From: Nemertoderma westbladi
Taxonomy: Eukaryota; Animalia; Xenacoelomorpha
Assembly (NCBI GenBank): GCA_032718475.1
Contig: JAUCBJ010007816.1
Coordinates: 1 to 64,000, forward strand
DNA length: 64,000 nt
Direction: 5' to 3'
Part shown: positions 1 through 31,134 of the stretch, one piece after another
Layout: each line of letters starts with the position of its first letter
Numbering within the stretch: position 1 is the stretch's first letter
The notes under the pieces: model-generated
Told to the model about the DNA's origin: nothing
What the model saw: the letters and a program-made list of their open reading frames with translations, nothing else
Databases searched by the model: none
Program-made: the position numbers and the translations under genes

Positions 1-3000
1 TAGAACGCCTTTACTAGTCCTCTCCTGGCCATAAATCTCTTTAAGGCCAGGAGCAGAGATTTGGTCGACATGTCTGCCACACGCTCGATATGTATGGCTC
101 TACTAGCCATGCATGTCAGTAGCAGACCCCATCGCTTGTGGGTCAGCCGTCCACTCTTTGCTTCAATCGGACCAAAACAGTCCACCCCTGTATTCGTAAA
201 GGGTGGGTCATATGCCTGCACTCTCGCTTCCGGGAGTTCAGCCATCTCCTGTTCCAATACTCTGGCGTTCACTCTCTTGCAAACCAGACAGGCGTCGTAC
301 ATGGTGCCTACTGCCCTGCTTGGCTGCAATAGAATGAATCGCTGTCTCGCTGCCGACAGACAGTGTAACCTTCCCGCGTGATGTAACCGCTTGTGTATAT
401 CCCATAGAATCGCTCTTTGCAATTCTATTGGGTGACTAGGGATTATCACTGGGAACCGAAACTGTGAGTTTATGTCGACAGTCTGGATTCTCGATCTATG
501 ACAAATCAAACCCTTATGGATTAATGGACTCCATTTTCTAAGGGGTTTATAGAGAACTGTTCGTTGAGCCGATAATAGATGGAATTCTTTAGGGAAGGCA
601 CACATTTGATAATGTCTCAAATGCTTAAATTCCGCTTGATCAATCTCATCCTCTGTCAGAGGTTGTTTCAATTTCCGAATTCGCTCACTATTGGTGCTCA
701 ATGGTTCTCTCAAATGTTCCGAATGTTTTAAACAAAGGTACAAAATGTATCGGCTTAACCACGCAGTTCTTTTACAAATTGTCAGCCAAGAGGCAGACGA
801 ATTTAGTAATTTGTCATAAATACTGCATGACTCTAATGCCAGCGACGGTTGTCCGTTAACTAATGGAAGTTTCGAATCCAAACCCGCAGGTTTGGAAACC
901 AAAGGCTCCATTGTGTCGGTCATTTTCTGTCCGTCACTTACCAATTGTGACTCCGGTTTAGTCTGTAAGGGTGGTTTAATGTCATAACTTATCCTTCCGG
1001 ACCTAGTAGTCACGTAAGTCTGTTGGTCTGACAGGTCTCCGGGCCGCTCCAATGACTCTTCAGGCCGCTGCAATGACTCTTCAGGCCGCTCCAATGACTT
1101 AAGTTTGGCTTTAGACTTCGACTTAGAGACTTTCTCCACTTTGACTTCTGCATCTTCAGGCATTGGATTGGTCACTATCTTCAGTCGCTCCGGCCAATGT
1201 TCCTGTGTCCTCGTTAGAAATTCAGGTCCATGCAACCAAAACTCCTGCGACTCTTCCTGACAGAATTCCGCCGGCATTGCACCTCTCGAAGTTATGTCGG
1301 CCGGGTTCAACACTCCCGGACAATGTCTCCATTGTTCCTTCGTCGAAAAGTCGACGATCTGAGCGCGTCTATTTGCCACAAATGTCTTTAGTGCAATATT
1401 GTCGGCCGCAATGTATACTAACACCAAGGATGCGTCCGTCCAATAGAATAAGGTCAATGTCGTGTCTAACTCCTCAATTATCTGCTTACTTACCTCGACC
1501 GAAACTACAGCCGCCTGTAACTCTGCACGAGGGACAGTCATGTATTTGACCGGCATTGTCTTTGATCTAGAAGTCACAAAGGCCGTCTCAAATTTGTCCT
1601 GACTTACCTCTCGGCGAAGGTAGGCTACCATACCAAAGCCGGTGTCACTTGCGTCACTAAATAGGTGCAGTTCTAAATCAGCTGGGAATACCAGCTGATT
1701 CGGAAAGTAGGAGCGGGGTACATCTATGTTTTTCAATAGATGTAACTCGGCTTCCCACTCTCTCCACTGCTTTGCATGTATAGGAGATATTGGTTCGTCC
1801 CACTCTAGGTCGGACAACCAAATTTTCCTCATGCACGCTCGTGCCTGTAATATTACCGGACTGATAAAGTTCATCGGGTCAAATAGTCTACTTAATGTCG
1901 ATAAGCAAATTCTCTTTGTCAAAACTTTGTCTGGGCTACTGGGCTCAAATCTAACTCTTACCTGGAACTTGTCTGAGTTCGGGTTCCAAGCGAGTCCCAG
2001 TACTCGCGCCATGGGGATTGGTTCTACCCCCAATTCAATGTCTCCGCTCCCGCGATCTTTTACCGGGAACGACTCTAATAGGGCCTCCGAATTCGTAGTG
2101 AACTTGGTCAGCGGAAAACCCCCTGTAGCCAAGCACTCTTGCAGGCCGTGAGCCACTTCTATGGCTTGTTCCGCCGTGTCCTTGGACACCAATCCGTCGT
2201 CCATATAGAAGTTTCTCAAGATGGACTCGATTACTTCTACTGGGTACTTACCAATCTGGGCTGTTGCCGTTTTCTTTAGAACAAACAGCGTGCCATTCGG
2301 ACTATCGCGGGCGCCAAATATCCTAACGTACATTTGGTATGTAACCACTGGGCCGGATAAGTCTTCATTCTCGTACCAGAGAAAGCGAAGGCTATCCTGG
2401 TCTGCCTTACAGGCTCTTACCTGGTGGAACATCGCCTCGATGTCACAAGTAAATGCGAATCGCCGCTGTCTAAAACGCAACAGTATTCCAATCAAATAGT
2501 TATTCAGGTTGGGACCATCCATCAACTCTGAATTCAGGGACATACCTCTATAGACTGCTGCGCAGTCGTTGACTACTCGGACTTTGTCTGGCTTGTCAGG
2601 GTGAGTCACATAGTGGTGTGGAAGGTAATAAGTCTGGTCTGTCACTAAGTCAGGGTCCTCTACCTTCCCAGCAAATCCCTTGGCGAAATAGTTGTTGATC
2701 TGGGCGCAATACTTCTCCCTAATGTCTGGATTCTTCAACAACCGAGCCCTTACTCCGTTTAATCTTTTCAAGGCTAAGTTGTAGTTGTTCTCCAACTTAG
2801 GTGGTTGTCGACGCCACAACATTCCAACTTCAAAATGTCCAGTCGGTAGTAGACGTATGGTGTCTTCCATCATCTCCAGCGACCGTTTCTCATCAGTAGA
2901 CATGGCTAGGTCATATCCACCGGGTTCCATTGCGTCCCTATCCAGCCATTCGACGGTTCTGGCTCCTGTCTCGAGGTCCTGGCGTATCAATTCCTTCTGT

Positions 3001-3330
3001 AATTCCTCCTCACTGTATTGGAAAATGTCTAGGTCTCGATATTTAGCCACTTGACCCTCCACTATGTCTGTATAAGTCAAAACGTTAGTCAGATAGGTAG
3101 CGTGGGCCGCTGAACCAGACCCACGGGTCTGATAACAGTAGTCCTCGGGTTCACTATCTGTCCGGTCGTTGTGAAGTGGTTCCGACAACCTAACATTATC
3201 GGGAATCAACTCCTCGTCCGACTCGCTAAAGTCACTATAGTGGTCAATACAGGTTCTCCTAAACTCGTCTATGTCTGGTGGTTCTACTAACGGTGGTTGA
3301 GTTATAGGCTGTAATTCGTCGTATCTGTCT
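1..3330 (-). CDS. pol: A1 pol (RT, RNase H, start of integrase); frame runs off the window
   Basis: Reverse complement aligns with A2 pol (YYLPHH, FYMDD, HLFSDAS, YWTDA, TGVDCFGP); has CGA where A2 has a TGA stop. Start is approximate because of an upstream frameshift. Confidence 0.85.
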
Positions 3331-6300
3331 CATTGGCTTGTCGCCACCTGTAAACTCATAAGACATGGGTACTCGTGTATACCAACCTAGTATAGTCCTA
3401 TGGGCATGTGGTCCATTGACATGCGGCTCAGCTGGTCTCGTTTCCCATATCTGGTGTGCGATCAGCTGTTCTGCACCAATCAACATAGAAACATTCCTAT
3501 AACCTACCTGGTGTCTGGGTATCCTGAGCTTGTCAAAATACTCCTGTGCTATGGGACTCATCGGCGGCACCTTACCTAACTGCCTGCCGAATCCCTTCAT
3601 AGCTAGACACTTAAATCCGTCCAATGGCAAAGCTTTCCGTTCTTGTCGAGTATGCTGGTCTCTCGGAAGTAGGGAATCTAGTTCTACCGAAATTCTGTGT
3701 CCCTTGAGGTCTCCTACCCCATGCATAGACTTCAACTCTATTTGGATCTCCTCGGCGTCCTGGAAGCTAGAAACAGCTCTCGCCACTTCCTCGTCGATAT
3801 ACGATAATGTGGACGCAGTGTCCAACATCACATATATTCGCTTCGATCCCTTATCGCCAGTGAGTTTCACCGGAATCACGCTAAATATTTCCGACGTGGC
3901 CGATGATAAATACGTCCGCGCGCTGGTCGATGAACTATCCGCGGTGAAACCTTGGCAGGTCACTTCTCTCGCGCTCGACTCGCCATCCTCGTCCGACGAA
4001 CCTGGTTGGTAACCATCGTCCTGGATGCCAGTGTACGTATTCCTCCTTATCGATACGGGTTCTTTGCTCCCCTTCCTGTGAGGATTTCGCTGTAAGTAAC
4101 GGTCCGTTGGGGTATGGAAATCCGCATGTAGCAACTTGTGATGTAGTCTGCCGCATTCCATGCATCCGTCCTTGCTGTTCGGGCACTGCCGCCGTACATG
4201 ACCTGGCGCAAGACATGCCCAACAGGTGTCCAACGTCCGCACTTGAACTCTTCTCTGTTCCGAATTTAATTCTTTGAACCGTCTGCAACTATCTAACTTA
4301 TGGTCGTCAGATCTTACCTCCTTTAGTAAACAGTATTGGCAACCTACAAATCCATCCGGCAACTCCTGTTGCTTTAACCTAGGTCTATCTAACCGCTCAC
4401 CTGACCATACTCGCGAGTCTGATCTAAAGGCTGGGGTACTCGAATTATATCTGTCTACTGAGTTATAATGTCACAGTGGTCCTGTCATCGTCAAAACTTA
4501 CCATAGACTTACCGGTAACAGGTTTAGACTCTCTCATATTCTCTTCTGAGAAGTTTGATTTCATCTCTGCTACTGCGTCTGTGGCTATCATGTCATGAAT
4601 ATGCTGAAGTGTCAATACTTTACCTTGGCCCTCCAACTTATTCTCTAATTTGCGCCATTTCTGTCGGTAACGCATGTTTAGACGTCTTATTACGCTCTTT
4701 AAAACTTCGGCGTGATCACCATGATGAGGTAGATTCACCGTCCTCAAGATGTCCAATGCGTTCGAAATAGCGTTCGCTAAGTTCAACAGCTCTAACGGAG
4801 TTGTAATCCTTCCGCCCTTACCCAAGTCTTCTACTATCGACTGCGCCATCTTGGTTTTATTCCCGTAGATGTCACTAAGCGTCTTCATCGCTAACTCGAA
4901 TGCTCTTTCATTGCCGACGAAGTTATCAGCAATGGCTCTAGGTTCTCGATGGAGCATCTGAAGCAAATAGTTGAACTTCTCGTTGGGAGTAAAGGTGCTG
5001 TTGGTTAGCTGCTCGTCGACATAGGTTTTGAAGGTCCTCCAGTGCTTATGGTTGCCCATAAACTTCTGGGGTTGTTGCGTCGGCAGTCCTTGCCTAGCAG
5101 CAAACTTACCTATGTCCCTAAGGGTTGCGTCGTTCCGGGTTAACAAATGGTTTAGTTCCGCAGGGTTGTTAAGTCTGGTCCTTTCCCGGTGGTTCCAACT
5201 TACCTGCTCCGCGTCGGTCCTTCTTTCCTTATAGTTTCGGGACTTCTGACGTCTCATTTCTTCCTCTTCATCGCTTGACTCGGTGTCAGTCCTTAGCGCT
5301 CGCGATGGTTTGCGCGCCGAGGCCCTGACCCAAGCATCCTGAATAAATTTCTCGGCCGAATTTTCGAAATTGGGATTATGAATATTCGGGACAGGCGTCC
5401 TTACCTGAGGTCTATGTGGTATAGTTTCCTCCGATATGCGTACTCGTTGACTAGGCTGGACTTTATCTAACTCAGGCCTGCTGGGATTAGAATTACTTCT
5501 TACCTGGGCTGCTTCCTTTAACCGTAGGTTGCTAAGCATGTCCGTTATAGGTTGGATGTGCGGCGATATAGCTTGCGCTAAACTAGCACTTAACTCATCC
5601 CTCGTAATAAATTCCTGGCTAGGGTTCTGTTGTATAGTCGGCTCTATCTGAGTAATCCGCTGTCTCTCATATGATCCCTCTTCCGGTTTAACCCGGAAGT
5701 TCTCCGTCGAACTGGGTCGGCGCTCCGTCCGCGTATTCCAAACCCGCGGGTTCGGTTCGCCAAATACTCGTCCCGTTGGAGTTTCTTCTCTAAATTCTCC
5801 GTTCGTCGTTCGGTATACAGTGGTGCGGTGTTCCGATGACGTGGATTCTGCGCGATGGGTGAAGCACTAATACCAACTGGCGTGCGATATGTAGAGAATG
5901 GTTTAGCGATCCGTGTACTCGTAATAGCTGGACCGGGTATAGGAATTCTGGTCGTCGTCGACTCGCGTATGGTCGGAGTTCTCGCTTCCTGTTCGGCCTT
6001 CTGCAGTGCGAACAGTTCTCGCAACTCAGTACCTACACTCGCCCCACATTCTTCGATCATTCGCATCCCCTTCTCGGCGATTTCATTCGCCTTCCTAGTC
6101 CGTTCTTCGCTCTCTAAACTTAATCTCGCACTTTCCAACTGCGCCAGTTTACGTTCTTCTTCTTCCCTCGCTCGTCTCGCTGCGCCCTCTTCTTCTACAC
6201 GCGCCTTCTCTTCATACAACGCCCGTCGCTCCCTCTCGCGCTCAAGTTCGCGCTCCTTGCGCTCGCGTTCGAGTTGGAGTTCGTATTCCTTTTGTTCGCG

Positions 6301-7545
6301 TTCCTTCTGTTCGCGTTCGAGCTGGAGTTCGCGTTCCTTCTGTTCGCGTTCGAGCTGGAGTTCGCGTTCCTTGCGTTCGCGTTCCGCTTGCTCGCGCTTA
6401 CCTTTCTCTTCCAACTCTCGCAACTTTGCGTCTAACTTACGTGTTCGCTCCCGTTCCCGCTCGGCTTCCTTCCGTGCTTCCGATGCACGCAAAACTTCCG
6501 CCTGCTGTTCGTCTAGTCGGCGTCTTCTCTCCTCTGCCGAGTTGTGAGAAACAAGGGATCTAGCACATATTACCTTACCTCGCGCGTGACTAACCTGGGA
6601 ATCGCCGCTGTCTCTAGATGCATCGTCGGGTGGAGTCAACGTCCTCTGTTGGATGTTCTCCGTCGTCGGTAGCACCTGACCTGGTACCACCACTCCATTC
6701 TGCATCAGCCAGCTAGTAACTTCCCTTTGATACCTGCGCTCCTCCTTGTCTTGGATCTCTTCTCGCTCCACTAACTCTCTCAACTCTGCGTCACTCACTT
6801 GAGTCGCCTGCGCTTGTGATGTCCATAGCAGCCAGTTCTCCGTCCTAACTCGTCGGAATCGCTCCGATAACTCGCGGTGCTCTAACAAGGCTGCTAAAAC
6901 CCTGTCGTAAATCCTCGTTGCTACGTCGCTCGACTGAGACTCTACTGCCTTCTTCGCTAGGACTGCAAGCTCCTCCGTCTGCTTGAATAACGCTGAGTTA
7001 TATCCTCTTCTAATCTCTACTAACTCTACCCTCCCGATGTTCGCTGAGTCAGCTAACATCTTCCTTACCTTGTCCGCCGTCCGGGTTATATGTCCGGCAT
7101 GCGCGCGAAGTTTCTTCTTTATCGCGATATCGAACTCTCTATCACTCACCTGACTTACGCTCGGTGGACTTGAAGGATTATTTCGGGAACTACGGGTACT
7201 CCTAACAGCCGTCGGGACCACGGCACTTACCATACCCACAGGTCTGGAAACCGGGCTCCGGGCTCTCGCTTCTGCTACACTACCCTCCCTATCACTCACC
7301 TCTGTCCGGGCTGCCGTACAGTCCTTCCTTACAGTAGCGGTAGGGGATCCTAATACTATTACTTGAGGTTGTTGTTCTTCCTCACTAGTCACTGTCTCGT
7401 CCTCCTGTTCACTTACGTCAGCGTCACTCGCTGCGTCGTCATAGTCGGCATTGTCGTCAACAGTAATATTGACGCTATCGTCAGTCGGCGGTCCAGCCGC
7501 CGTCTCGTAGCTGTCCTCTAGTGCCTCCTTGTCTGAGACACTCAT
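3259..7545 (-). pseudogene. gag: A1 gag-protease broken by frameshifts into three ORFs
   Basis: ORFs 5644-7545, 4463-5539 and 3259-4362 are consecutive pieces of the intact 1520-aa A2 ORF; CxxC zinc knuckles and protease-like MLDTAS. Confidence 0.9.
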
Positions 7546-8734
7546 AGTCTAAATAATGTTTTGCCTTCCGGCAAAAATATCTCGCAAAGTTCGAGATATA
7601 ATTATAATTTAACCGAAACACGGTCAAATTATTTGTCAAATAATCAGTTGGTCCAAATGTCAAAATAAATTCGCAATGCAATATTGTGAATTTAATGGGG
7701 TATATAGTTATAGCAAATACTAGCACAATATTTAAACAAAAATATTATTATATAGCTACTATATAGCATTAAATACCGGTATAGCACAAAATAACTTTGA
7801 ATCTAATACAAAATATTCAAAATATACTTGCCGCCCGAATATTTCTAATTTTATATATATAGCTCTAATCAACGTAATTTTAATTTCAAATATTATATGT
7901 ATCCACTAGCGCGTGGCTACATCTTCGGGTTGCGACTCTCTCTAACTCTCTCTCTAACTTGAGCGATTCAAAAAACCATGGCCGGCTAAACCTAAATATC
8001 CTAACTAATAAATTGAGTTCAGCTTCGCAGTTAAACAACCGATAATTTTTTACTGCTTCCACAAACACAATGGTGCCAACAGAACAACTAACCTTGTTTG
8101 CTGTGAGATTCCACGTCCGCGTCCAAAGATTCAGGCCCTTCGCTGATTGCAAACCGAACCCGCAGACCCACACGAACCCCAAACTCAGAAGTCCCGTCTT
8201 GCCATGTATCTCCAGATGGTATAAAATAACTAAGCGGTTACCTAACATACCGGTACAAAACTCTAGAATTTTACAAAATAATTTTGACCGAAACTGAATT
8301 CTCGCAAACCTAGCTAATAATTTTCAAAAAACTTACTAATTACAGTTTGCCCTAAGGCCTAAGGAACTGCTGTATTCGCAATTAGCAAAAACGCACTACC
8401 GTACATCCACTGTATGCAGTACAGTAAGTAAAACAGTACACCAACCTAACAGCCTAATGATACTGTGTGTGGTACGGCAAAACAAATGTCCCTTCTACCG
8501 TACGCAGTAACAGCAATCAGCCTAATGTACTACTGTACTAGTGTACGCAGCCAGTGAATACAGTAATCTAAACTAACAGCCTAAAGGAATATACTCAATG
8601 TCTTACTGTACGCTAGCCTATAGCCTACAGCAGACGATCACGTGCTCCAATTTATTGCCTAATACTATGATACTACTATCAGCCTAAGAATACTCTATTG
8701 ACCGCTGCAAGCAACAGCCAATAACACGTATCAC

Positions 8735-10933
8735 TGATAAACAACCGCGACCTCTATACTAACAGCAGAACTGTTGAACAGACCAATACCCGTTAATATC
8801 CTTCTGCCAACCTAATAAGTTCTCGTCTAACCAATAAGACACAAAGACTGCTCTACTGTTAAGTAAAGGGGCTCAGGAGCGTGATATTACTAAATTGTAA
8901 GGGTTGCTAAATACAAAACCGCTACTTACCGTTAGATGGCGCTAATCTGCCGTCCGCTAATATATTTACTAATTTTACACAACTCCTGCAAAATCGCTTG
9001 TTCCTTTCTCTACCGATTGCTCAATAGAGAGCTAACTGTTCGAATCTATGAGCCACGCAGGAATAACCAAAACAATAAACCCGAGTCGGCTCCCTAAGCT
9101 TACTTAAGACGAGTGCGAGAGGCCTTGCACTCAGAGTATTCTTACGCCTAATTCTATCACTATTAAAGCACGCTATTACCTACGTCTTTTCTAATCGCGA
9201 ATACTGGGGGTTCTCTAACGTAATGTGTGAATGCGAGAATATTTAAAATATCAAAAATGGTACAGTAATTGTCTCTCGTGGATAGTACCACTCTGGGTCT
9301 AAAATTGCCTGCAGCTGGCTTTAGGCCAGCAAATCACTAGCGTTTCGTGCGTACCGAATAGTGCGTTCTAGCTGATTGTCCGCTAATGCAAATAACCGCT
9401 CAGCGTGAATAGTTTACAGTACTCTTAATTATTACTTTAGCTACTCTCCGCTATGCTGCGTACTAATTCTTAATTTTACTAATTAATTACAGTCACAAAT
9501 ATTTAACAGCGTACTAATTACTAAGAGTTCCAGAATACGTAATTCTAATTTATCACGCAACAGGTTTCGCTAGTAATAGCCTAAATTGCCGTATTACTTT
9601 GACCTAATCAGTAACTAATTGTTGTAACTAAGAAATAGAAATCAATCAAAGAGAAAAGAGCGCCTACCTAAACATTCACAATCATAGGCACACTTCAGTA
9701 ACACACCAATCAGCGTCAGCAATCACAGTTCGCAATTATGCAGTTAACTACTGTATAGCCCACAATTATGCGACTCACTATTCGTACTACACGCTCAACG
9801 TTCGAAACGTTGTGATACGTGCAGGCCTCTCCCGGGTACATATAGGACTCCTAACTAACCTGATTCCCGCCCCCCTAATACTAAATAGAGACGAAACCTG
9901 GATCATCAGCCCCCTAATTACCGTACCGGCGATTGGTCTGCGTACCACAGCGTTAACTTCCCGACCGCAACGGTGACCCCACGCCAGCGTTGCTCGCTTT
10001 GAATCCTCCGCTCTCCCTTAGTCGCCCAACCCCCCGATGTGCCCACCGCCCGCTGGCGCCTTAGCCCTCCATTACGCTAATAGCTACCGTAGCGGCGCAT
10101 GCAAATCACAAAGTCTGACAGTCTCAGAAATCCCTTAGGATTATTGCGCAGGAAAGAATCACATAGAACCATTAATCAAAAGTAGAAATCATAGTTCAGT
10201 TGTAATTAGCAGTAATCGAAGGAATTAATTGAGAAACACAAGCAAGAGTAATCGCACTAGCAAATCATTTCAAGAAATTAATCAAATTGCAAAAATACTC
10301 TAAAATCCGTCAAAATTGAATAGAGACAGCTCAGCAAGTACAACAGCAGTGAAGGTTGAATCGATTGATAACAGGTAAGGCTCTACCGGCACACCGCCAA
10401 TTTATAGGTGATCCGGATGGGATGATGCAATAGGGTGACTCAATCGCTCTCCTATTGGCTCTCCAGTCCATGCTAGCATTAGACCAACCTGGAAGCAGTT
10501 AATCCAATAAGGAGGCCGGATTGTAGCCCTATTGCTCAAATTATTACCATATATGGTAATGGTTCACGTCTCTGGCTGCTGAATGGCCAGGACGGCGTCC
10601 CTATATGCTAGCCCTATCAAACTAATATCAGCAAGCACAAAATCCAGGGTCCGAATAAACTCGCTACCCTGGAACTATCTACATATATCCTAATACAAAA
10701 TTACGTAGGTAGGGCTACATACTATACAAAATGGATGGTTTCAAATATATGGGCGTTTTGATTTCCCTACCTAAATACCACTGCGTTATTATGCCTTATC
10801 TAAAATATCATGCTGCACAATGGACTAATATTACGTACAGTATAACGGACTAATATTGCATACTGCATAACGGACTAATATTACATACTGCATGATGACT
10901 AATAATATGGATACAGCGCCATATACTGTAACA
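8735..10933 (-). repeat. 5' LTR of A1 (~2.2 kb, TG...CA)
   Basis: Aligns to both A2 LTRs; ends ...GTTGTTTATCA on the minus strand. Confidence 0.9.
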
Positions 10934-13722
10934 GCAGGCCTACTATTTATAAATCGTTTGAGTTGATTTATAATATATATATACCCGTTGAAATGGGTTT
11001 TGTCAATGTTTGAAATAAATGTTATTATTTCTTGGGGAGTCACTACACATAAGCTGTGCGCTCTCAGTGGAGTGCTACTTGTTGGACACTAAAACAAATA
11101 ATTCTAATTTAACTAAGTTACTTAATACTACAAATTACGTACAATTCGGGTTGAGATTACAATCTCTAAATAAACACAAAAATTTAATTACAAATACACA
11201 AATACGAATTTTTAGGGTAATTTTACAAGAAGTCTACTAACCAGCCTAACAAAGGGTTAGAATATCTGGTTATTACAACGGACAGGTTACTACGGTATTT
11301 GAAAATAATAAGTAGTAGTAAATATACTGCGTTGTCCAGATAGGAAAATACCACCGCCTGACGACCTATAACCGTATCGCTATAGGTACTACGTTATGTA
11401 TCACGGAGTGTTCCTACCCAGAAGTTAATTACCGCGGTCTACCAGAACCAACGTGCCTATTAACCACTTTACAACACTAATATACTGCCTACACACTAAT
11501 TGCTTTCGGAAAGTACTGTACACTAAACCCTAAATTAGGTACAAGTACTTGTATAACAAATAATTAGTAGTTAAAAATACTTAAACAGCTAAAAGAACCA
11601 CGGCATCTGCTGGAGTGACCGGTGCACAAAATCACCAGTCTTTACCTACGCCGAGCAGCCCTGATGTAGTACCGGGGTTAGTAAATAATAAATAATAAAT
11701 AATAAATAAATGAATAATAAATATTACGCTACGCGTACAAACTACTCAAACAAAATGCAGACCAAATACTGACAGACTACTATCAAGCCTAAACAAACCA
11801 CGGTATATGCAGACTCCGAAATGGTTAAGTAGTATGCGTTCTAACCCAGTAGTACGACTTATTCTTTAGATGGGGATTTACCTTACAGCTATGGCTGCCC
11901 CTACTTCCTAACCGTTCTTTATCGGACAGATGATCTACACACACCGAAATTTCCTCAAACCCAACAACAGCCAGACAACTATCCAGCCTACAAATTATCT
12001 AAATAAAATTATACGCTACCCGTACAGACTACACAAACAAAGTACAGACCAAACGATGGCAGACTACTATCAAGCCTAAATAAACCACAGGACATGCAGA
12101 CTCCGAAATGGTTAAGTAGTATGCGTTCTAACCCAGTAGTACGACTTATTCTTTAGATGGGGGTTTACCTTACAGCTATGGCTGCCCCTACTTCCTAACC
12201 GTTCTTTATCGGACATACACTCTACATGCACTGCAATCCGTTCAGACCTAATCAACAGTTAGCCAACAGTCAAGCCTACAAATTATCTGTACAATCTGAG
12301 CAGGCTTACACGCCTTCTGCTCAATACTGGCTTACAAATAAATAAAACTGACAGAAATAGGCCTAAGTAAAATCCCAATAAAAACCAGGCGTCCCCGATT
12401 AATTATTAAGACCTACCGGTATATAATAATCAAATCGAATAATACTGCTGTACCTGTACTGTAAGTACCGGTTCGGATGATCAGGCAGTCAGGCCTACAG
12501 GTTTCCGGTCGACCGGTACTTTCGACTAGATTGCTTACACCGCAATCCAGAAGCAATATCTGTTACTGTTTGCGCTTTTAAGACCTTTGACAGTTTAACC
12601 TGCCAAATTAGGATGTCTTTTAGATGATATATAGTCTTTAGCTTATGACGAGTATTTGATACACTACATTAGCCGAAGCCAGTCTATGCGCAATCATTCA
12701 CCCGCTGGATATACCCGGGAGACTGAATTCGGAAGCTTAATGATTGATGGTGTAAGCCTACTGTATTATTCCTGTATTATTCGACTGATCGTAATATATA
12801 ATCTCTGACAAATATTATTCACTTTCGGGAAATATTAACAGTTCCTTTAGGACGTGGCGCTCTAAATATGTAAACAGAGTTATGCTTAAACTAGACACAA
12901 CGAAAAGGCTATAGATTCACGTATATGGCGCATTCTTTAGGAGATGCTTTGTTATCAGTTACACTCATACACAATGCTGCACAATACTGCACACTAACCT
13001 GCCGACCTTCACTAAATTTAGTCACGTATAAAGAGAGCAACAGACAATTTATGTTGGGCATATGAAATAGCATTAGATTCACTTCAAACCACTTAACATA
13101 GGTCGCAATCGTTTATCTGTAACCGGTCTCTCTAACCTTTAGTATATCAAGAAGGTGGGGTATCTGACTATTGATCAGTATTCCGATATAATATTTCATC
13201 AACCAATATAATGAATAACCGACAGTAAAAGCAGTAATATTAAGGTATAAATGATTATTAAGTGAATGAGTTAACTCGGTAACAGATATACGTTCTATAA
13301 TTAAGCCTACTAATGTTAAACTAAAGACTGAAACACGGAGGTGCTCAAAAGCCGGTGTTCTTAGGCTCTGGGCAAAAACATAACACTGAACTACTGAGTT
13401 TCTGTACCCAACTCCAACACAGAGACAAAAAACGCTCTGATTGGTCAACCGAACAATGAGAGAACAAAGAAACAAAGAAATGTCGACGTGGCAATATCAG
13501 CTGTTAGCCGTCGTCATGGTAGCGACACTGTTTTCAAGAGTATCTAGCTTATCGCGTCACGAGATTGCGGATTATGTCCTCTAAAGTACAAATACAGAAG
13601 AAATGACTTTTATGTCCTCTAAAACACCAGTACAGCAAGGACGCGGCCCTTTTATGCCTGGTAAACCAACTACAGAGTACTTTAAGGGAAAATAACCGGT
13701 TAATGACGCAAAAGCTTTTACA
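10934..13722 (-). mobile_element. LTR element E: 5' LTR (12446-13722) plus leader, interrupted by A1
   Basis: TGTAAAAGC at 13722 cuts the D gag frame abruptly; CA end at 12446 followed by an 11-mer complementary to 12774-12784; leader rich in TAGGCTG motifs like the A leader. No second LTR or ORF in the window. Confidence 0.6.
11715..12288. repeat. ~287-bp tandem duplication in the E leader
   Basis: AGACTCCGAAATGGTTAAGTAGT block at 11811 and 12098 with aligned flanks. Confidence 0.9.
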
Positions 13723-15436: not shown

Positions 15437-17254
15437 TGAAGCGAAGAGACGTACCTGATATCCTGCAATATCCTACTGTAAAGTTTGTGAATCAAAACAT
15501 AATCCGACCTTCTCACCAAAACAGTAAACTCTAAGTAAGCGAATCTATTGCAGTATCGGTCTCTTATAACCGGTGAGGCAGAAGACAGTCTACGAACGGA
15601 CAAACTTCGATAAAACAAAATCCCGCGCAGCGAATCCTAAAATCGGGCTGACTCACTGACGGACTAAGGGCGCTCGTATACTTTGCCGCGGTGTGATTTA
15701 TATGTGGGTGAGAGATAGAGGCGCTAGCTAGATGTCTAACTAGCGGGCAAAGTGCAGTACGGACAAAATTTTTTTATATATTTTGAGGTGTAAATAATTC
15801 CTAACGCGCGTGTGTCTTGATTCTAACAGTCAAAATCAGTTTTAGATCCTTCATATATATAATTACTAGGTCCGGTGTGCATTTTACAAATATTCTAATT
15901 TTATAGCTTGTAGGTCCAATACTCACGAATGATAAGGCTCCTTCCCCTTTTGTGTATTTCCAGGACTCAAATTCAGGCATAAGGTTAATACTACGCCCGG
16001 AATTCGGCAATTTAATTTTCCAGGTCCCTAATACTAAGAAGAAATGTGTTAGTTTACTACAGTAGGCATACAGTTACAAAATAGCTAGCCTGGCGTTCTA
16101 TCTAGAATTTTGGTTGCCTAGGTGGGCACGGCAACTCCCTATCAGAATGTCGGCGGGGACACGGTAGATGTTAGTATCCCTAATAGCCTCAATTTATATG
16201 CGCCTAGCAGTAAACTGCCCTACCGTCTGAACGGTACAATCCCAATTCAGGTAAAAACACAGTAACCCTTCCTGGCCTACAAGTTCTAATGCAAATGGAC
16301 ACCGTTGTACTACAAACAGCCACCGACGCACCTATACCTGGCAAATGAGTTAGGCGTACAGCTTGCTGCACCCTACTAATGTGTATGCCTTGTACTGGTG
16401 TGCCTGTGTCCTATCTGTGTACTAGTATCTCTCTGCCTGATCTCTTCCTCCCCCATAGGAATATGAAGGTCTAATGCGGGTTTTTCTGAATTGAGACAGT
16501 ACAGTCCCTAAATGTAATTTTAGCGCACAGCGTGTCAGTACCTCTACCTTCGATCTTAGGTCTTTCGCTTAGGTAGCAAGGCATCGAACGCTGTCTAACC
16601 TTTCAGGCGATGGGCGAATACCGATGTTCCCGTCTATTGCCGCTATCCGATGTCTAGCCTGCCATCTGTCTCTCAGTTGTGTTCACCGTGGTGAAACATA
16701 GTAAAAGCAGATGTAACAAATACTTTCTAACTTTATTACAAACAAATGATAACTAATATACAATAAATGTAACAAGAAGATTAAGTAAGATAGAATAAGA
16801 AGAAGATAACTAATGAACAAAATCGCACCTTTTATAGCAAATTTGTGCTGCTAACAATCTAGATAAATCTCGATTGTTCTATGAGTTCTACTAGGTTTTT
16901 AAAGATAATCATTGGTCCAGCAAACACGTATCTTGCACGACATTGGTTGCTATCTAATAACTGCAATCGCATTGGTTAATCTACCTTAAGCAGATACAAT
17001 TAATTTGTAGCGGTTAATTCAAATGAGTTGAAACTTAGCACAAAAAATAATTCACACTTGCTAGGATTCGAACTCGATACCTACTACACGAATTTCTAAC
17101 GCTTAACTGACTGAGCTACTGAACCACTTGAATAATCGTTGTACAAATAGATATAGTAAATACAAATGAGGACTTAATGTAATCTTTATAGCAAATTAAT
17201 TCGAACAAAATAAAATTTTGAAAATCCACGGCTTTATGAGGATATAATTCTATA
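15437..17254 (-). repeat. 3' LTR of B (1818 bp, TA...CA)
   Basis: Matches 30714-31134 + 45422-46684 + 48839-49033. Confidence 0.92.
17053..17125 (-). promoter_or_regulatory. tRNA-like Pol III A/B-box cassette inside the B LTR
   Basis: TAGCTCAGTCAGTTAAGCG (TAGCTCAGTTGGTTAAGCG in the other LTR) and GAGTTCGAATCC, followed by a T6 run. Confidence 0.6.
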
Positions 17255-17959: not shown

Positions 17960-19516
17960 ACAAGAAAGGCTCACGTGTCTTCCATCCACCCTTGCCTTCC
18001 AGTTTAGCGTTTTGTAGATTGAGCACGCCCGCGTCCTCGAAAACTGCGTATAGGCGACTTGGCTCGTACTGCAGGGCTTATGGGGCGAGTCACTGGTTTA
18101 CCTTGGACGTTGGGAGACGGTGCGACCATTTCCTCACAAGCTCGCCTTCTAGTAATTCCAAATCCTCATCCAACTCCTCGTGACCGATTAGTTGTATCCA
18201 TCGTTGGCAAAACGTCTGGGAACGCGCGGGAAGCGGACGACGCAGACCCAAGAGAAACTTGTGCCCCCCTTTGATCAACTGGTATGTGTCCTAGTCCTCC
18301 TTGCGGTTCTCTGGGAAGTGATACCGTATCTCGAGTAACTCGAATAGTCGGTTCATATCCCCTTCGTTCTTCAACATTTATAGTTTTCTTTAGTTGTTGG
18401 CTCACTTTCTGAACCCTTATAATCCTATTCTGTCCGTCCTCCCGAGGGTGACGTGCAGACGGCGCAACCGGAGTAGCTGGTATGTTGGTCGCCTCTAGGA
18501 TCTCCTCTTCCTTGAATACGCTCGCTCGTATACGTTTGTGATAGAAGGCGGCTCGGTACGCCCATGCGATGGTTAACCAAGATCCCTTATATCGCTTTTC
18601 CGTTCGGAAACGATCAAATTCACCATATGTGATACGATTAAACATTTTGGGCAAAGTTTATACTTTCGAAAATTTCCGGTGTCATCTCCTTAGCTGAAGT
18701 TTGATCGTGTGACGTCCAATGGTAAGGTAGGCTCGCGAGTCTTCCGCCCCATTCTTCCATCTCACCTTTCACGAAAGCCTTATAGGCTCTGTATAGGCTA
18801 AGAGCTTCTTTCTTTTCGCGGGTTGACTGAGTCACCTCTTCCAGCGTAAGTTCAAATGCATCGGGTTCAACAATCTTAGGTGGGCAAACGACAATTTCTC
18901 CCGCCTTTGGTCCACACATAGCAAATGAATGATACGGATTCGATAAAGGATACCCTCCTTCCTGGTAGCGTAGTTGTTGATGGTTCGAACACCTTGCCAA
19001 TATCGGTTCGGGATTTTCCTTATTCAAACGCATCGGAATCGCCTTTTGTTGTTCGCGCATACAAGCACCACATTGATAATAAAGTTTGTAAACTGAAAAG
19101 GCTTCCTTCGTTTCTCTATCATCTCCTCGAGTTCGTCTGTAAAGATGCATTCCATCGAATTCATCACGTACCGCAGGCATAGGTTCATGTGCCTTCAGGT
19201 ATTGCATGGTATGATACAAACGACTAATTTCGGTATTGGGGTCTTCACTGATATCTCCCGTATCACATAAAGCATCGTACGGATAAAGTTCATTGAAGGT
19301 TTTGCGCAAACTTTCGATTCTTTGGTTTAGAGCGTTCTGCCTCCTCTTTAACACCGTCGAGTCATATTTAGTTTTAGCAAGTTTTGCTGTACTTTCTGAT
19401 AAATCCTTTATTCCGAATATGGTATAATCCTTTGCACCAAATCTTTCGAATGGCGCTGCTGCTTCCTCTTGGATATCATATCCCCATCTCGGCTCTCCAT
19501 GTATCCCTTTCGCCAT
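17960..19516 (-). pseudogene. Extra ORF (ORF3) of element B, unknown protein, frameshifted
   Basis: ORFs 18638-19624 (ATG at 19516), 18166-18654 and 18090-18278 overlap end to end between integrase and the 3' LTR; CGAC...CSNH motif; no hydrophobic transmembrane stretch. Confidence 0.65.
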
Positions 19517-20180
19517 TATTGGAAGTATGGTTACATAATCATTACTACTAGAGGGAATACAACAGAGTTTATTGTTAGTAATGAGGAGATGTGAGAGTTT
19601 TCGTCTGCCCTTTTGGCTCGACAACGCTCTAACCTCCTACCCATAGCCTAAGATCTAGGGTTTCTTTAATGACACGCTGTTTCTTATCTAAAATTTTTGC
19701 CGAAATAAAAACGAATTTGGGCTAAACTGGCTGTGAATCTAAAATTCTCACTTTTTGATCCCAAACTATTATCAGAAAATAAGCAATCGAGAGTTAGTAA
19801 TAAATATAGGGAAGTCTATTTGTTGACGTAACTTTTGAAACAAGACCGTGTAAAATTTAATTAAAATTTAAGAAAGGCTCGCGAGTCTTCCATTCTCTTG
19901 TTTCTCTAATTTTAAGTCCCACCCGACTGTACCCTGAAATCTATTCACTGGAGAAAATTTTTTTAAAAATTTTTCAAATCCAAATGGATTGTCTAAAATT
20001 TCGAAAATGTCTCAATATTGTGAGTTCCAAGTAGAATTCCATTTCTTATACCTACAAATCCCGCTCCTATGTGACACATAAGGGTACTACCCTCAATGTT
20101 CACATATAAAGACAATGGAATTCTACCGCTGTCTTTACTACAGTGTACAGGTACGTGGAAATCTATTTGTAAACTCCTTA

Positions 20181-23100
20181 CTATTTACTAACATTAGTTG
20201 GAGACTTGTAATCTCCAGACTCGTTTCGAGTCTCTTCAAGAAGTACGAGACGTTGAGTCGGTCTGTCTACTGTACGACCGTCAATTGTCCGTACCGTCAC
20301 AGTTCTTGTCACTCCATCCATAGATGGATGTGTGTCTAAAATAACACCTGTTATCCAGAAGCGTCTTTTTAAATTCACTTCTGCCAACAGCACGTGATCT
20401 CCTGGCTTTAAAGCGCGAGTATTGTTGTACCAAGTAGTTCTGGCAGAAATAGAGGGCAAATAATGATTTTGCCATATTTCCCAGAATTGTTAGCCAGTAG
20501 TTGCGTGATTTTCCACGCTTTTCTACCATAGCTATCGCTTTCTATTGGAATAGAAATAGGCATTAATGAAGTCGGATTAGCAGGTGTGCCGGTGTTAAAG
20601 CAAACTGGGATTGTTTGTCATCGGGTACTAATACTATTGGTCTAGTATTTAGTATTGCCTCGATTTCAACAAACAATGTGGTCAGTTTGTCGTCTGTCAA
20701 GATGTGGTTTACTGGAATTACTTTTGCCATGCATGGCTGTTTTTATAGATCTAATCAATCTCTCCCAGACTCCGCCTCTCCATGGACTATCTGGAGGATT
20801 AAACTTCCAAACAATCTTGTAAGGACGTAGTTCATTTGAGATTTGATCATGATCTAATTTCTTAAAGGCTCTAGCAATTTCATTTCGAGCACCAACAAAG
20901 TTTGTACCTTGGTCTGAGTACAAGCATTTTACTAGTCCGCGTCTAGCGATAAATCGCCGCAATGCTAGTATAAAAAAAGCGTTGGTGGAAAGATCCATCA
21001 CTCGTTCAATATGAACTGCCCTACTGGACATGCATGTGAAAATCAGTCCCCAGCGTTTTACTAGTATACGTCCACGTTTCGTATGTATGGGACCAAAGCA
21101 GTCAATTCCAGTCTCTGTGAAAGGTGGTCTGAATGCCTGTAGTCGTGCTTGTGGAAGTTCACTCATTTCTTGGGTACTTATTCTAGAATGTACCTTTTTA
21201 CAAATAATACACATGCGCGTCACCGAACTTAGCGCTTTACTGGGTCTAATTAATACAAATCTTGTACGTAAGTAGGAAAGACAGTGGTGTCTTCCAGCGT
21301 GTTTCAGATGTAAATGTGCGTCCAGTATCATTGCACATTGTAATTCGTGATGTTGCGGTATTATTATTGTGTACCTAAAATCAGTATTAAAGTCGATGTT
21401 TTGAAGCCGAGATTTATGACAAATTAAGCCATTATAAATTATCGGACTCCAACTCAATATTGGTGACGACTTGATTGGTTGACCTTGACTTATGGATGTG
21501 AATTCGTGTGCGAAATATCGCAATTGGTAATGGCGAATTAATTTAATTTCACATCTGTCAATCTCAGTCAATGTTAGTCGACGTGTAAAGTCGCGTTTGC
21601 CTTTAACGTATTGTACAAAACATATAATCCACGCTAATTTTCGGCACGCGTTTGTCCAAGAATCTGTCAGATTTACAATACGGTCGACGTAAGTATTTAT
21701 GACGTCATCAGGTAAGTCAATGATGAATTTTGAAGGTTTTGTTTTACTAGATGGGCCCACGGGTCCGCCGGTAAGTATTCCCTTGTTGACTGTTGATCCG
21801 TCCGGGTCTACGAGTAATTTGTCCTTCTTCGTCTTCTTACCTTGATTATCAGTACTTTGTGAGTCGATTCCTAATGGTGGTTTTAACTCTATGGGGTCAC
21901 TGGGTTTCGGTAAATTTATTTTTCTGCCGATATTTATCCCAGGTCTCACCGTAGGTTGTAAGGTTGGTATGTCTCCTGAGCGTAAAGTAACACCTGTATT
22001 TACATTTGCGTAGGTACTACCCACATCTGTAATACATGAGGTTTCACTGTACTTATGGTTACTCAAGAGTGTCAAATTTGGTATTTTGTCAATAGAAGGC
22101 CGCTCCAATAGGGAAACTGCGGCTTTACTATGTGTCACTACATTACTAATGTCTGGTAGAACATCTTGTGAAATGTCTGGTAAAATGTTTCGCGGAACAT
22201 CTGGCGAAACATCTAGTGACATGTCTGGCAAAATGTCTGGTTGAGCGTCTGGTAACGTGTCTGGTTTATCGTCTGGTAACATGTCTGGTTGACCGTCTGG
22301 CGATACGTCTGGTTGAGAAAGGCTCGCAAGTCTTCCTGTCTTAACTTTGTAAGTTATGTTTTTCCATTTCGCCTTTGGTTTCTTCTTAAGTTTCGCCGTT
22401 GTCTTTTTCTTTGCTTTACCTTTCTTTGGTTTTTTAATTTCGGCGTCCTTAGGAATAGTGTTAGACTTGTTATCGTATAGTGGCGGCCAATGTTGCGTTG
22501 CTCTTTGTAAGAATTGTGGTCCGTGTTGCCAAAATTCCTTGTTTTCCGGTTTACAGAATTCCTCGGGCATCATTCCTCGCGACGCAATATCAGCTGGGTT
22601 TTGTGGTCCGGGACAATGTCGCCAATCTTCTTTTATTGAACGGTCTAGAATTTCTGCACGACGGTTGGCTACAAATGTCTTAAATTCAAGTGTGTCGTTG
22701 TTTATATAAAATAAAACTAACGTCGCGTCAGTCCAATAAAATATCTGTAAACTTGACTGTAGTTCAGTCTGTATAAGGTTTACAATTGTCGTTGACAGAG
22801 TTGCGGCTTGTAGCTCAGCGCGTGGTGTCGTCATGTACTTAGTAGGCTTGGAAGTAATGAGCGAAACATCAAACTCATCTGAGTCTACTTGTCTGCGCAA
22901 ATACGCTGTCACTCCAAAGCCGTTGTCACTGGCGTCGGAAAAACAATGTAATTCTAAGTTGTCAGGAAATGTCGTCTGTAATGGAAAATATACCCGGGGT
23001 ATGGAATAATCTTCTAGTGAAGACAATTGCGATTCCCAAGTTTTCCATAAGTCTACTTGTTCGAATGAGATCGGTTCGTCCCATGTCAGTCCATCTTTCC

Positions 23101-23920
23101 AAATACTGCGCATGTATATTCTTGCTTGCAGTATTATTGGGCTGATAAAACCTAATGGATCGAACAGTCTACTTAGTTTTGACAAGCAAGACCTCTTTGT
23201 CAGAGAATCTCCTTGAGCGTCCAGTCTTACCTTCACTCGAAAGTTGTCTGTGTTCGGATCCCAAAATAGTCCCAACACCTTGGTCGTTGGTAGTGGTTCG
23301 AATTCCAAGTCAATGTCACCACCCCCATGTTCAGTCGTTTCGAATGAATTTACTAATTCGGTACTGTTCGAAGCAAACTTGGTGAGGTTAAAACCTCCGC
23401 CTGCCAAACAGTCCCGTAATTGATGTGCTACTGTTATAGCACGTTCTACTGTGTCGCAACTTTGTAATCCATCGTCAACGTAAAAGTGTCGTTCTACTAC
23501 TTGGATTACCTCTGGGTCATACTTATGTTTCCAATCCCTAGCGGTCTGCTTTAGGGCGTACATAGTGCAATTTGGGCTGTCTCTGGCACCGAATACGCGA
23601 ACTTGCATTTGGTAAGTCGCCGGTGGTTGACTTAAGTCCCCATCCGGGTACCAGAGGAACCTCAAACTGTCTCTGTCTCGCTCTAACGCTCGCACCTGGT
23701 GAAACATGGCTTCGACGTCGCAAGTAAATGCTACTTGGCGTTGACGGAAGCGCATAATCACCCCCATGAGATAATTATTCATGTTTGGTCCATCCATCAA
23801 CTCCGTATTGAGAGACATTCCCTCAAACAGAGCCACGCAGTCGTTTACTACACGTACCTTGTCTGGTTTGTCGGGGTGTCTCACGTAGTGATGTGGCAAA
23901 TAGTATGTCTGGTCTGTCAC
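20181..23920 (-). pseudogene. pol: B pol: RT, RNase H, integrase and C-terminal DUF5641-like tail
   Basis: YYLPHH, FYVDD, HCFSDAS, FYWTDA, H...H...CIIC, TGIDCFGP, YSDQGTNF, GGVWERL; frameshifts near 20690; tail LKPGDHVLL...RPTQRLVLL. Confidence 0.92.
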
Positions 23921-25113
23921 ACGCTTTCGTCCTTCTGGGCTCCTCCCCGAGGCGCACCCACAAGGCGGACGTGTTTCCACCACCCTGGGGGCCGGTGACA
24001 AACCAAACCAGGCCGCAGGGTGGCCCGATGCTTCCCGGGTTCTGTTTTCGGTCCCCCGATCACACCAGCACAGCTCGTCGAACGTGTAGCCAGATGGGCG
24101 GCTACTGTCAACTTACTGTGGCCTGACTGTACATTGAGCCAACTCAAAGTATAACAAAGAGTCAACCCGCAGGTGGACCAGTCGATAGCGATCGAGCACC
24201 AAGGTCGCCCTTGGGCCTAACCGACGGTCTTGTCCCAAGCGGGCTTGCGCTACCCAACATGGAATTTTGACTCGTTTTCACCTGCCTCACCGGCAGTATT
24301 GAGGGGAAATAAGTTCCGCAAACAATACTGACTAGCTCGAAAGCTAGAAACAAGTAACCACTTACCAGTCACTGTACACGTGTACTCAACAGATGTTCAC
24401 GAAATCAAGTACACAAACGGTAAGCACAAAATCGAACACATACCATGCACACACAGAAGACATAATCGGGAAAGACAAAATCGGTGTCAAAATCGAGAAA
24501 GACAAAATCGGAGGGGACAAAATTGTATCAACTCATAAAGAGTCGAGAGTACCTTATTTTGCTGTCAGGGCAAAATAACTTTGTGTGCACAAAGTATGCT
24601 GGGGCGCAGTAAAGTATGGTCCTACTAATACCAGCGGCGTCTGGACCAACTGGCAAGGGTTCCCATACTCACTCGCAGTGGCCACACATACAATCACGTG
24701 TACTCACGTACCCACAGCAACAGAAAACTCAAGACCCGAACAAATCCCAAAGACCAATCAGCTGACATGGAGACAATAACATATAGTATCAAAAAAACGG
24801 AACAGCTGATGGCCAAAGGAACCCATCCAAGCCCCAAGCAAACTGCCACTGATCGCCCACATACAAAACATAGTTCACGCCACATGAGCCACAAATCACG
24901 CCATTGCACCACCCCTACTGTGTACAGGACTGGCAGTACGGCAACAGGCCGACTAGACGGTACCACGGCACCATGGCAATTCATGGTTCGTTAGACACGA
25001 GGGCCTTCAGTGACTCCCTATCACTATATTACCAGATTTAATGTGCCCCCAGACCCTCACGAGTCCGCCGCCGCCTGTTAGAGACACCCCTATAGAGACC
25101 TCACCTCTTTCGG
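23921..25113. mobile_element. Unclassified 1193-bp insertion in the B RT
   Basis: Removing it joins ...TNPEI|VTDQTYY, collinear with A (...EDPDL|VTDQTYY); no TSD, TIR or credible ORF. Confidence 0.75.
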
Positions 25114-28100: not shown

Positions 28101-29904
28101 CTCCGTTGTTCGGTAGGCTCACAAGTCTTCCTCGAAGTCGTAGATTGCGATGTAAACTGAATCCGTGGTCGCGTAATGGCGTTTGAGTCTAACGGCCTTG
28201 AAGGCCTGAATACGATTGGGTTTGCGTAGTGTGTCACAGGTTTAGGTGTCGAAGGTTGACTCACCTGTTTAGTCGTCATTAATGTAGGTCCGACCAATAA
28301 ACTACTACGATTGGTAATTGGCGGGTTACTTACCTGAACTTTCGGAATAGGCGATGACGTTGCTCTTGGCGGTATAAACTTATCCGGAATAATGAACCTG
28401 TGATCCGTCGCATCATGTATAGGAGATATATTACTACTACCCGCAATCGAAACAGGTTCTTTGGTCGTAATTGATGCAAACATATGAGTTACTTGAGGAA
28501 ATCGTTGACATAATTCACCAACCAGCTCTCATCCTCGCTCAGGTGCTCCTACACTTCCTTCCTTTATTTGTTCCTGAATTTGGCGGTGCCTTACTTCTAT
28601 CCGGTCTAGATCGTGTCCGTCTCGAGATCTCATCGATCGATCGCGGGCTTTAAGATCCAGATCTTCCTTGGCGTTAGCTAATTCTCTCGCCTTCCTTTCG
28701 AGTTCGAAATGAAGTTTAACCTCTTTCTCGCGTTGTTCCGTTTGTTGTTGTTGTGCCTCTAACTCTGCTAGTCGTATGGCTGATTGAGCCTTTATTTGCC
28801 GTTTTTTCATTTCGGCTCTCGCTTCTGAAACTAACCTTTGTCGCTCTAACTCAGCCGCTGCCGCTGCCGTTTGTCGCTCTAACTCGGCCGCTGCTGCTGC
28901 CGCTGCCGCTTGTTGTGCAATGTCCAACTCTAACCTTTCCATCTCGGCTGCTTCCAACTCGGCTTGTTCTTGCAGATGAGAGATTCTCGCAACATTCGCA
29001 ACGCGTAGTTTCTCTTCCTCTACTGCTGCTTGTACCATTAACAGTTGAGTTTGTTCCTTCATCTCCTGTTGTTGTCTGTAGAACTGCTGCTGTTGTCGAG
29101 CAATTTCTGACGTTACAATACTCACCTCGCCAATTTCGCTGCGAATACTCACCAATGATTGATCCATTATTCCCGGTGCCAGTTCGATTTGTGCGTGTGA
29201 AGTTTCCCTCGTAGCCTCCGGCACGGTTTCCCAATCTCCGACGTCTTCGCCGCACATACGTAAGTGATCCGTCAGATGTTTCAATTGTCCATCCAGCCTA
29301 TACAATTCCTGTTCTTCCTCGGGCTGTAATAACTCGTCGGAAACTGACTCACCTAGCAACTGGTCCGCTTGTTCCTGCTGTATCAGTCTAACGGTCGTCT
29401 TAAACTTAATCAGTTTCTAAGCTCCATCAGGATTCTAAGCTGAGTGTCTGAGTCCTGTCTTTGTCTAGCTAGATCTTGTAGACTGATTAGGTTATCTACG
29501 GACTTATGTACTTTACTTTGTACTCTAACCTGTAGGGTGTAAAACTCGAACCGAGACATCGGAGCGGTCAACTCGTCTAATATGCGTTGGCCTTCTCGAA
29601 TACTCCTGGTAATATGCGCCATGTATCCTCCGACGCTTCTAACTACGCTCTCTTGGCTTCCTACTGAACTTACCATGTCCGTTTCCCTGTGTCTAGGTTG
29701 CGGGACCGTTAGAAAATCCTCAGTCCTGCCGTCGCCTCATACTACAGCATCCGGTACTCCCGTTGGATGTACTGGTGACGCACACGGTGTAGGTTCGGTA
29801 GGCTCGCGAGTCTTCCCCTGTGGTTCTTCCGCTACTGACTTATCCGCGTCACATGAGTCATAGTCGGTAGGTGTATTCTTCGTATAGTCCTGTTTGTCAC
29901 TCAT
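25114..29904 (-). pseudogene. gag: B gag-protease with stops and frameshifts
   Basis: ATG at 29904; ORF pieces 29410-29676, 28529-29359, 27149-28483 and 25090-27189; PPKFSGNSKHWHTF, zinc knuckles, protease ILDSAS. Confidence 0.9.
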
Positions 29905-30713: not shown

Positions 30714-31134
30714 TGAAGCGAAGAGACGTACCTGATATCCTGCAATATCCTACTGTAAAGTTTGTGAATCAAAACATAATCCGACCTTCTCACCAAAACA
30801 GTAAACTCTAAGTAAGCGAATCTATTGCAGTATCGGTCTCTTATAACCGGTGAGGCAGAAGACAGTCTACGAACGGACAAACTTCGATAAAACAAAATCC
30901 CGCGCAGCGAATCCTAAAATCGGGCTGACTCACTGACGGACTAAGGGCGCTCGTATACTTTGCCGCGGTGTGATTTATATGTGGGTGAGAGATAGAGGCG
31001 CTAGCTAGATGTCTAACTAGCGGGCAAAGTGCAGTACGGACAAAATTATTTTATATATTTTGAGGTGTAAATAATTCCTAACTCGCGTGTGTCTTGATTC
31101 TAACAGCCAAAATCAGTTTTAGATCCTTCATATA
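30714..31134 (-). repeat. 5' LTR of B, U5-side piece
   Basis: Matches 15437-15857; cut by A2. Confidence 0.92.

Follow-up and report, generated by a model that had tools for sequence, protein, structure and literature searches.

Three LTR retrotransposons in a stretch of the Nemertoderma westbladi genome carry, directly after the 5′ LTR, a primer-binding site (PBS) that has no tRNA-type start and is complementary to an 11-mer inside their own LTR. What was observed directly is this pairing, its place flush with the LTR end and the fact that it is retained in copies and families whose letters differ. The explanation we favor, with a probability of roughly 0.55, is Tf1-like self-priming by the LTR 11-mer. 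If a route in which the primer comes from another RNA of the element is counted as well, it is likely that the primer is drawn from the element's own RNA in one way or another. The stretch analyzed, here called the window, spans 64,000 nt (contig JAUCBJ010007816.1 of assembly GCA_032718475.1, positions 1 to 64,000 of the forward strand).

Three nested BEL/Pao-type elements

The three elements, A1, A2 and B, are nested within the window. A1 and A2 belong to one family and are 95.8% identical in the internal region and ~91% identical in the LTR. Their main parts are as follows.

8735..10933, minus strand: A1 5′ LTR, 2,199 bp, TG...CA; the 3′ LTR lies beyond the window
1..7548, minus strand: A1 gag-pol region, split into several frames and running off the window
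31135-45421, plus strand: A2, whole element, 14.3 kb
31135..33310, plus strand: A2 5′ LTR, located within the 5′ LTR of B
34588..42641, plus strand: A2 gag-pol, three frames with DUF1759, Peptidase_A17 and Integrase_H2C2
43245..45421, plus strand: A2 3′ LTR, 99.7% identical to the 5′ LTR (7 differences)
15437-49033, minus strand: B, whole element, target duplication ATTAC
15437..17254, minus strand: B 3′ LTR, ~1,818 bp
30714..49033, minus strand: B 5′ LTR, split by A2 and by insert C (46685-48838)
18166..29416, minus strand: B gag-pol with DUF1759 and Peptidase_A17

Pfam matches to DUF1759 (A1, A2 and B), Peptidase_A17 (A2 and B) and the integrase zinc domain (A2) assign the three to BEL/Pao-type elements. 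The named homologues, which come from animals including marine invertebrates, are 31-44% identical and carry PF05380; over long alignments, the nearest database proteins are at most 42% identical. B and A share ~60% amino-acid identity in the RT-RNase H region. A2 is flanked by a 5-bp target duplication, ATATA, and has a short purine tract ahead of its 3′ LTR, a feature it shares with B. The BEL/Pao combination of two LTRs, purine tract and target duplication was thus found in A2 and B, while the second LTR of A1 falls outside the window. In using the label BEL/Pao-type, we judged a tRNA PBS to be a described trait of the group and not a demarcation criterion.

Some details of these elements are unusual. 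The A2 3′ LTR begins with TT, and both B LTRs begin with TA, not TG (17250-17254 and 49029-49033). The first A2 frame (34588-37140) holds ~850 codons ahead of DUF1759 that have no Pfam match, and its long E/R/K-rich repeats suggest a coiled coil.

The PBS pairs with an 11-mer of the element's own LTR

The sites involved in the pairing are listed below.

8724..8734, minus strand: A1 PBS, 11 nt, directly after the 5′ LTR end (8735), no TGG
9812..9822, minus strand: A1 LTR 11-mer, complementary to the A1 PBS, candidate self-primer
33311..33321, plus strand: A2 PBS, first copy, directly after the 5′ LTR, no TGG
33401..33411, plus strand: A2 PBS, second identical copy, partly within a hairpin
32260..32270, plus strand: A2 5′ LTR 11-mer, 1,040 nt upstream of the PBS
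44371..44381, plus strand: A2 3′ LTR 11-mer, perfect 11-bp complement of the PBS, ~11 kb away
30703..30713, minus strand: B PBS, an 11-mer unrelated to that of A, no TGG, followed by a 12-bp hairpin
46024..46034, minus strand: B 5′ LTR 11-mer, 10 Watson-Crick pairs and one G-U with the B PBS
16455..16465, minus strand: B 3′ LTR 11-mer, identical to that of the 5′ LTR

The 11-mer lies 1,077 nt upstream of the LTR end in A1, where it forms 10 Watson-Crick pairs and a terminal G-U, and 1,018-1,019 LTR nt before the end in both LTRs of B. In all three elements, the pairing with the own 5′ LTR contains one G-U and stops at the upstream edge of the 11-mer. The duplex is 10-11 nt, of sharp length, and flush with the LTR end. 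The sequence-only reading had described the A2 duplex as perfect. This is correct for the 3′ LTR copy, but the 5′ LTR copy has 10 Watson-Crick pairs and one G-U, which comes from a T at 32261, one of the 7 differences between the two LTRs. Since every contig counted at this place in runs X1 and X3, which represent two studies, reads C, we attribute the T either to a late mutation or to an error in the assembly.

Simulated LTR-like sequence rarely yielded an 11-bp match with no more than one G-U (8/2000 for A1, 16/2000 for A2 and 5/2000 for B). On its own LTR, each window PBS also scored higher than any of the 20-21 foreign PBSs tried. Matched duplexes have energies of -12.4 to -16.5 kcal/mol, compared to -2.8 kcal/mol or weaker for cross pairs of A and B, and swapping partners between A1 and A2 weakens the duplexes from -15.9 and -16.5 to -7.0 and -13.3 kcal/mol. 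The proposal that an external tRNA does not account for the pairing was upheld: no TGG starts after the LTR in A1, A2 or B, the pair in B is unrelated to that of A and family A has several PBS 11-mers. A search of the 64-kb window for tRNAs or Rfam families gave no match.

The second A2 PBS lies in a diverged 90-nt duplication that is missing from A1; the two PBS copies, 90 nt apart, are identical while the flanks of both units have diverged. The 5′ arm of the hairpin at the second copy could also pair with the true LTR-PBS junction, and a comparable hairpin in B (30669-30713) contains a repeat of that element's junction. It is possible that these hairpins act as a switch that hides or frees the PBS. 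One X3 contig seems to join 33408 back to 33322, hinting at more units in some copies.

A proposed self-priming model

The position and length of the duplex resemble those of Tf1, and it is from this likeness that we infer self-priming. According to the model, the LTR 11-mer would be at or close to the 5′ end of the genomic RNA and would reach the PBS by folding back over ~1.05 kb. A cut made behind the 11-mer by the RNase H of the element would release the 3′ end from which minus-strand DNA starts. An RNA 5′ end at the 11-mer and the RNase H cut have been shown for Tf1; here they are candidate steps. Reverse transcriptase would then copy the primer into the plus-strand PBS, writing one mutation to both sides: once the LTR 11-mer has changed, copying would carry the same change into the PBS, and repair would fix it in some of the progeny. 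The covariation between the two sites thus probably stems from the copying of the primer by reverse transcriptase and not from selection on a helix. Primer copying would also account for a fast turnover of the 11-mer between conserved flanks and for the persistence of a single G-U, although the G-U in every window copy is in itself a point against the model.

Weight of the covariation

The two positions reported as compensated between A1 and A2 (A-U to G-C and C-G to U-A) were recovered; they differ on both the PBS and the LTR side, the latter at 9814 and 9820. The probability that the three PBS differences between A1 and A2 cover both partner positions is 0.055 if letters are ignored and, by our own estimate, roughly 0.03 if letters are counted. 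One of the two compensated changes is of the CpG/TpG type, as are 22/107 of the A1-A2 LTR substitutions. Alone, the A1/A2 comparison is modest evidence (p about 0.03-0.05).

Further support came from additional copies. Logan contigs of the same species contain at least four PBS 11-mers beyond those of A1 and A2, with conserved flanks. Contig variants cannot be phased over 1 kb, and the following matches were made by eye between unphased sequences. An X3 LTR variant seen in a single contig fits a PBS variant from the same run at 10 of its 11 positions; the pair shares the terminal G-U of A1, and its PBS differs from that of A1 at five places, one of them a transversion. A single-contig LTR end from X1 fits another PBS variant over six visible places. 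At least two LTR variants have no PBS partner among the variants listed. A contig cell at a loose end, which was the majority of two different contigs, was excluded from the variant count, and allele frequencies from the contig tables were left out because known A2 differences are missing from these tables. As a rough figure, summed contig depth is several-fold higher on the LTR than on the leader. An exact search of metagenome contigs for the LTR end of A gave 0 matches.

Taken together, the coupling of the PBS with the LTR 11-mer appears well supported, with family B, the contig variants and the relatives described below as its main support and the A1/A2 pair weak on its own. The covariation had been put forward as the sign of a functional helix. 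The coupling part of this claim stands, but two changes in two copies carry little weight and selection on a helix does not follow. Statistics of the R-scape type presume independent changes and cannot separate copying from helix selection. Apparent compensatory changes at a PBS should thus be read with caution, as they may be templated and not selected.

PBS-LTR complementarity in related elements

To the window elements we added related loci from metagenomes. Of 80 loci fetched, 61 were excluded because they had no pair of LTR copies with a well-defined common end, leaving 19 usable loci from 15 families. Their LTR lengths were set by hand, and the LTR of L034 is just 164 nt. A PBS-LTR complement outscoring every foreign PBS (19-21 tried) was found in 13/19 loci (11/15 families). 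In 11 of these 13 (9 families), a GT-AG intron in the LTR has to be removed for the 10-15 bp pairing to form, and in the other two the pairing is contiguous, over 11 and 9 bp. The 9-bp match of L004 was equalled by 8/100 shuffles. No complement was found in the remaining 6/19 loci, two of which have a TGG no more than 4 nt from the LTR end. In a tree, A and B sit on a long branch of their own and the relatives are distant; this tree contains no named BEL/Pao references. Because its forks near the two TGG-type loci are open, a direction of change cannot be read from it.

L048 (1-214 and 6935-7265) has a 117-nt GT-AG intron in one LTR copy that is absent from the other, and its PBS is complementary over 14 bp to the junction formed by splicing. 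A spliced primer was also considered for A1, A2 and B and was rejected, as the contiguous match scores best there.

Folding, transcription signals and alternative readings

Predicted folds differ between the families. In B, the duplex has a pair probability near 1.0 for most pairs and a second helix adjoins it. In A1 and A2, the pair probability of the duplex is 0.0; forcing it costs 4.3-4.7 kcal/mol, which is within the error of folding 1.1 kb, and only then is a second helix predicted beside it. A hairpin is predicted after every junction.

Motif scans placed possible transcription signals well upstream of the 11-mer.

31661..31667, plus strand: A2 TATA-like box, 601 nt upstream of the 11-mer, offset from the 3′ LTR; motif scan only

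The corresponding distance is 584 nt in A1 and 371 nt in B, and boxes 370-600 nt upstream would argue against a primer at the RNA 5′ end. The only AATAAA in the B LTR is 272 nt upstream of the 11-mer, with just an ATTAAA downstream, while the scan of the A LTR found neither AATAAA nor ATTAAA. Taken at face value, the B signals would put the 11-mer in U5 and not at the RNA 5′ end; if such signals mark true ends, the primer would need to come from a second RNA. The contigs of X5, which we guess to be an RNA run from one study, cover only 32391-33218 at a depth of 3-12 and were left unused.

On an alternative reading, the primer would still be RNA of the element, though not the template's 5′ end. 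Transcription would start at the upstream TATA-like box and the 11-mer would be cut from a longer RNA, supplied in trans by the second genome copy in the particle, by read-through from the 3′ LTR or by a solo-LTR transcript, with the template remaining uncut. The boxes at 371-601 nt and the AATAAA of B upstream of the site point in this direction, as does the finding that the family A duplex is not favored in cis; the several-fold higher contig depth on the LTR, although rough, suggests that LTR-only sources may be many. The consistent end of the pairing at the upstream edge of the 11-mer in A1, A2 and B, however, fits a primer 5′ end at that place, the duplex of B is predicted in cis with a probability near 1 and the literature consulted shows no precedent. 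We regard this route as possible, though on the unlikely side. An extension of it, which we consider unlikely, is that in a large share of marine-invertebrate BEL/Pao elements tRNA priming has been replaced by a primer/PBS pair that rewrites itself in every round of replication, with the primer of long-LTR elements cut from inside a second RNA and the rapidly changing 11 letters serving as a key specific to each subfamily.

The pairing could instead be a structural or regulatory helix, used in packaging, dimer formation or as a switch of translation or splicing, while another RNA primes. The hairpin after every junction and the second helix of B would suit such a role, and the PBS begins with GT, like a splice donor. 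We find it improbable since the paired strand occupies the very site at which primer binding sets the LTR end, and the letters turn over fast within one family, which a fixed host primer could not follow. The window also lacks any tRNA or Rfam RNA.

It is very improbable that the match plays no part in priming and is maintained in the DNA itself, through template switching or fold-back repair between the inverted 11-mers. Such upkeep would be in line with the second A2 PBS, which lies in a fold-back hairpin and has kept the same letters as the first despite diverged flanks, but it does not explain the 11/19 loci in which the complement appears only after intron removal and it leaves the elements with no primer. 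Finally, chance and CpG decay, with two transitions facing each other by accident, would fit the small number of changes (two, one of CpG/TpG type, p about 0.03-0.05) and the 5/8 CA|GT matches at the 9-bp level that sit off confirmed LTR ends in the window, but this reading is scarcely credible and is largely refuted by B, which repeats the layout independently (5/2000), and by the relatives, most of which agree, in addition to the five-change variant pair in the contigs.

Comparison with known priming systems

Self-priming has been shown for Tf1 of Schizosaccharomyces pombe; in Tf1/Tf2 of this species and in Tj1 of S. japonicus, the PBS is flush with the 5′ LTR and has no tRNA match, according to the parts of PMC7175516 and PMC4600332 consulted, and self-priming has been proposed for Tj1 (PMC4600332, same parts). 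The window elements resemble the Tf1/sushi group, as portrayed in those excerpts, in that the PBS of A1, A2 and B is complementary to ~11 nt of the own LTR, and resemble Tf1 in the sharp length of the duplex and its flush position (PMC7175516, in part). About half of Tf1 cDNA retains a full PBS copy at its 3′ end, as stated in the section seen of PMC11042837. The second helix predicted beside the duplex of B could be a counterpart of U5-IR, a Tf1-side feature taken here from a title alone. Tf1/sushi elements are Ty3/gypsy chromoviruses, whereas A1, A2 and B carry BEL/Pao domains and no chromodomain by Pfam and are not members of that group. In contrast to Tf1, the window elements have LTRs of 1.8-2.2 kb and a loop of more than 1 kb.

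In plants, self-priming has been predicted from PBS-LTR complementarity for Tcn1 (Ty3/gypsy) and TAR/Houba/Osr-1 (Ty1/copia), according to an excerpt of PMC6317226. These belong to other superfamilies and hosts than the window elements. The trait has thus already been proposed outside Tf1/sushi, which lowers the surprise of the present case.

For the Belpaoviridae (Semotivirus), the ICTV describes an 18-nt PBS for tRNA-Arg or tRNA-Gly, LTRs of 0.2-1.2 kb, genomes of 4.2-10 kb and a replication that is primed by host tRNA and poorly understood (PMC8742986). The window elements agree with this family in their LTRs, their 5-bp target duplication and the order of DUF1759, Peptidase_A17 and an integrase zinc-binding domain. 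They differ from it in the size of A2 (14.3 kb), in their LTRs of 1.8-2.2 kb and in lacking an 18-nt tRNA PBS, as judged by the absence of TGG.

Our literature search, which covered titles and abstract openings, chiefly outside the subscription journals, found no report of self-priming in BEL/Pao elements. A term look-up in four BEL/Pao papers (PMC3118150, PMC554778, PMC6238403, PMC8556966) found no mention of a PBS in the text it reached, and BEL/Pao self-priming was absent from the portions seen of PMC3601003, PMC3286476, PMC5443660 and PMC13524379. Self-priming in BEL/Pao elements would extend a known priming mechanism to this superfamily, although an earlier mention is possible. The Cer elements of C. 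elegans have self-encoded primers. A search of the literature for these primers returned nothing relevant.

If the self-priming model is true, BEL/Pao would join the Ty3/gypsy and Ty1/copia lineages in which self-priming has been shown or predicted, and the window would provide an additional independent case, with an unusually long loop and a fast turnover of the primer. Such elements would presumably be freed from the tRNA supply and from silencing by tRNA fragments. Annotators would gain a test for BEL/Pao elements that lack a tRNA PBS.

Candidate sites and other features of the window

Two further sites show the CA|GT...AC pattern of the confirmed elements.

50743..50967, plus strand: candidate family E; its 9-mer (50743-50751) can pair with the 9 nt that follow the CA at 50958
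12556..13289, minus strand: candidate F, 11 nt after a CA (12566-12556) that pair perfectly with 13289-13279

The E site lies upstream of a decayed BEL/Pao gag-pol and its LTR end is a candidate; TATA- and initiator-like motifs, found by eye, would place a start 25-35 nt before this site, which speaks against an RNA 5′ end at the 9-mer. In F, the complement is 712 nt upstream, the pair probability is 0.67-0.99 and a hairpin lies behind the PBS; neither a second LTR nor an ORF was found as confirmation. F (12556-14165, minus strand) may represent an older element, with A1 inserted in its leader. Among the 553 CA|GT sites of the window, 8 reach a match at the 9-bp level; 3 of these are the A1 and A2 PBSs and 5 lie off confirmed LTR ends. 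E and F are both among the 5, so chance could account for either.

As a whole, E (50650-63560, plus strand) looks like a decayed third BEL/Pao family that is broken by several insertions. Its RT region is ~31-35% identical to those of A and B, and an AATAAA lies downstream of its pairing site. A, B and F have an AG 15-16 nt before the primer end; as no clear pyrimidine tract accompanies it, this AG was left out of the argument.

Insert C, in the B LTR, shows a 14-bp target duplication and carries an AATAAA close to its 3′ end; its open frame of 688 codons has no match in Pfam. It looks like a retroposed or non-LTR insertion. A relative, 68% identical, is found at 57953-59294 (region 57086-59317). 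The window also contains three repeats of other kinds.

14632-15385: satellite-like repeat of roughly 160 bp
54140-54335: palindromic MITE-like element
55103-55930: 19-bp tandem array

At ~63580-64000, the BEL/Pao frame of E gives way, as judged by eye, to sequence resembling a LINE-type reverse transcriptase.
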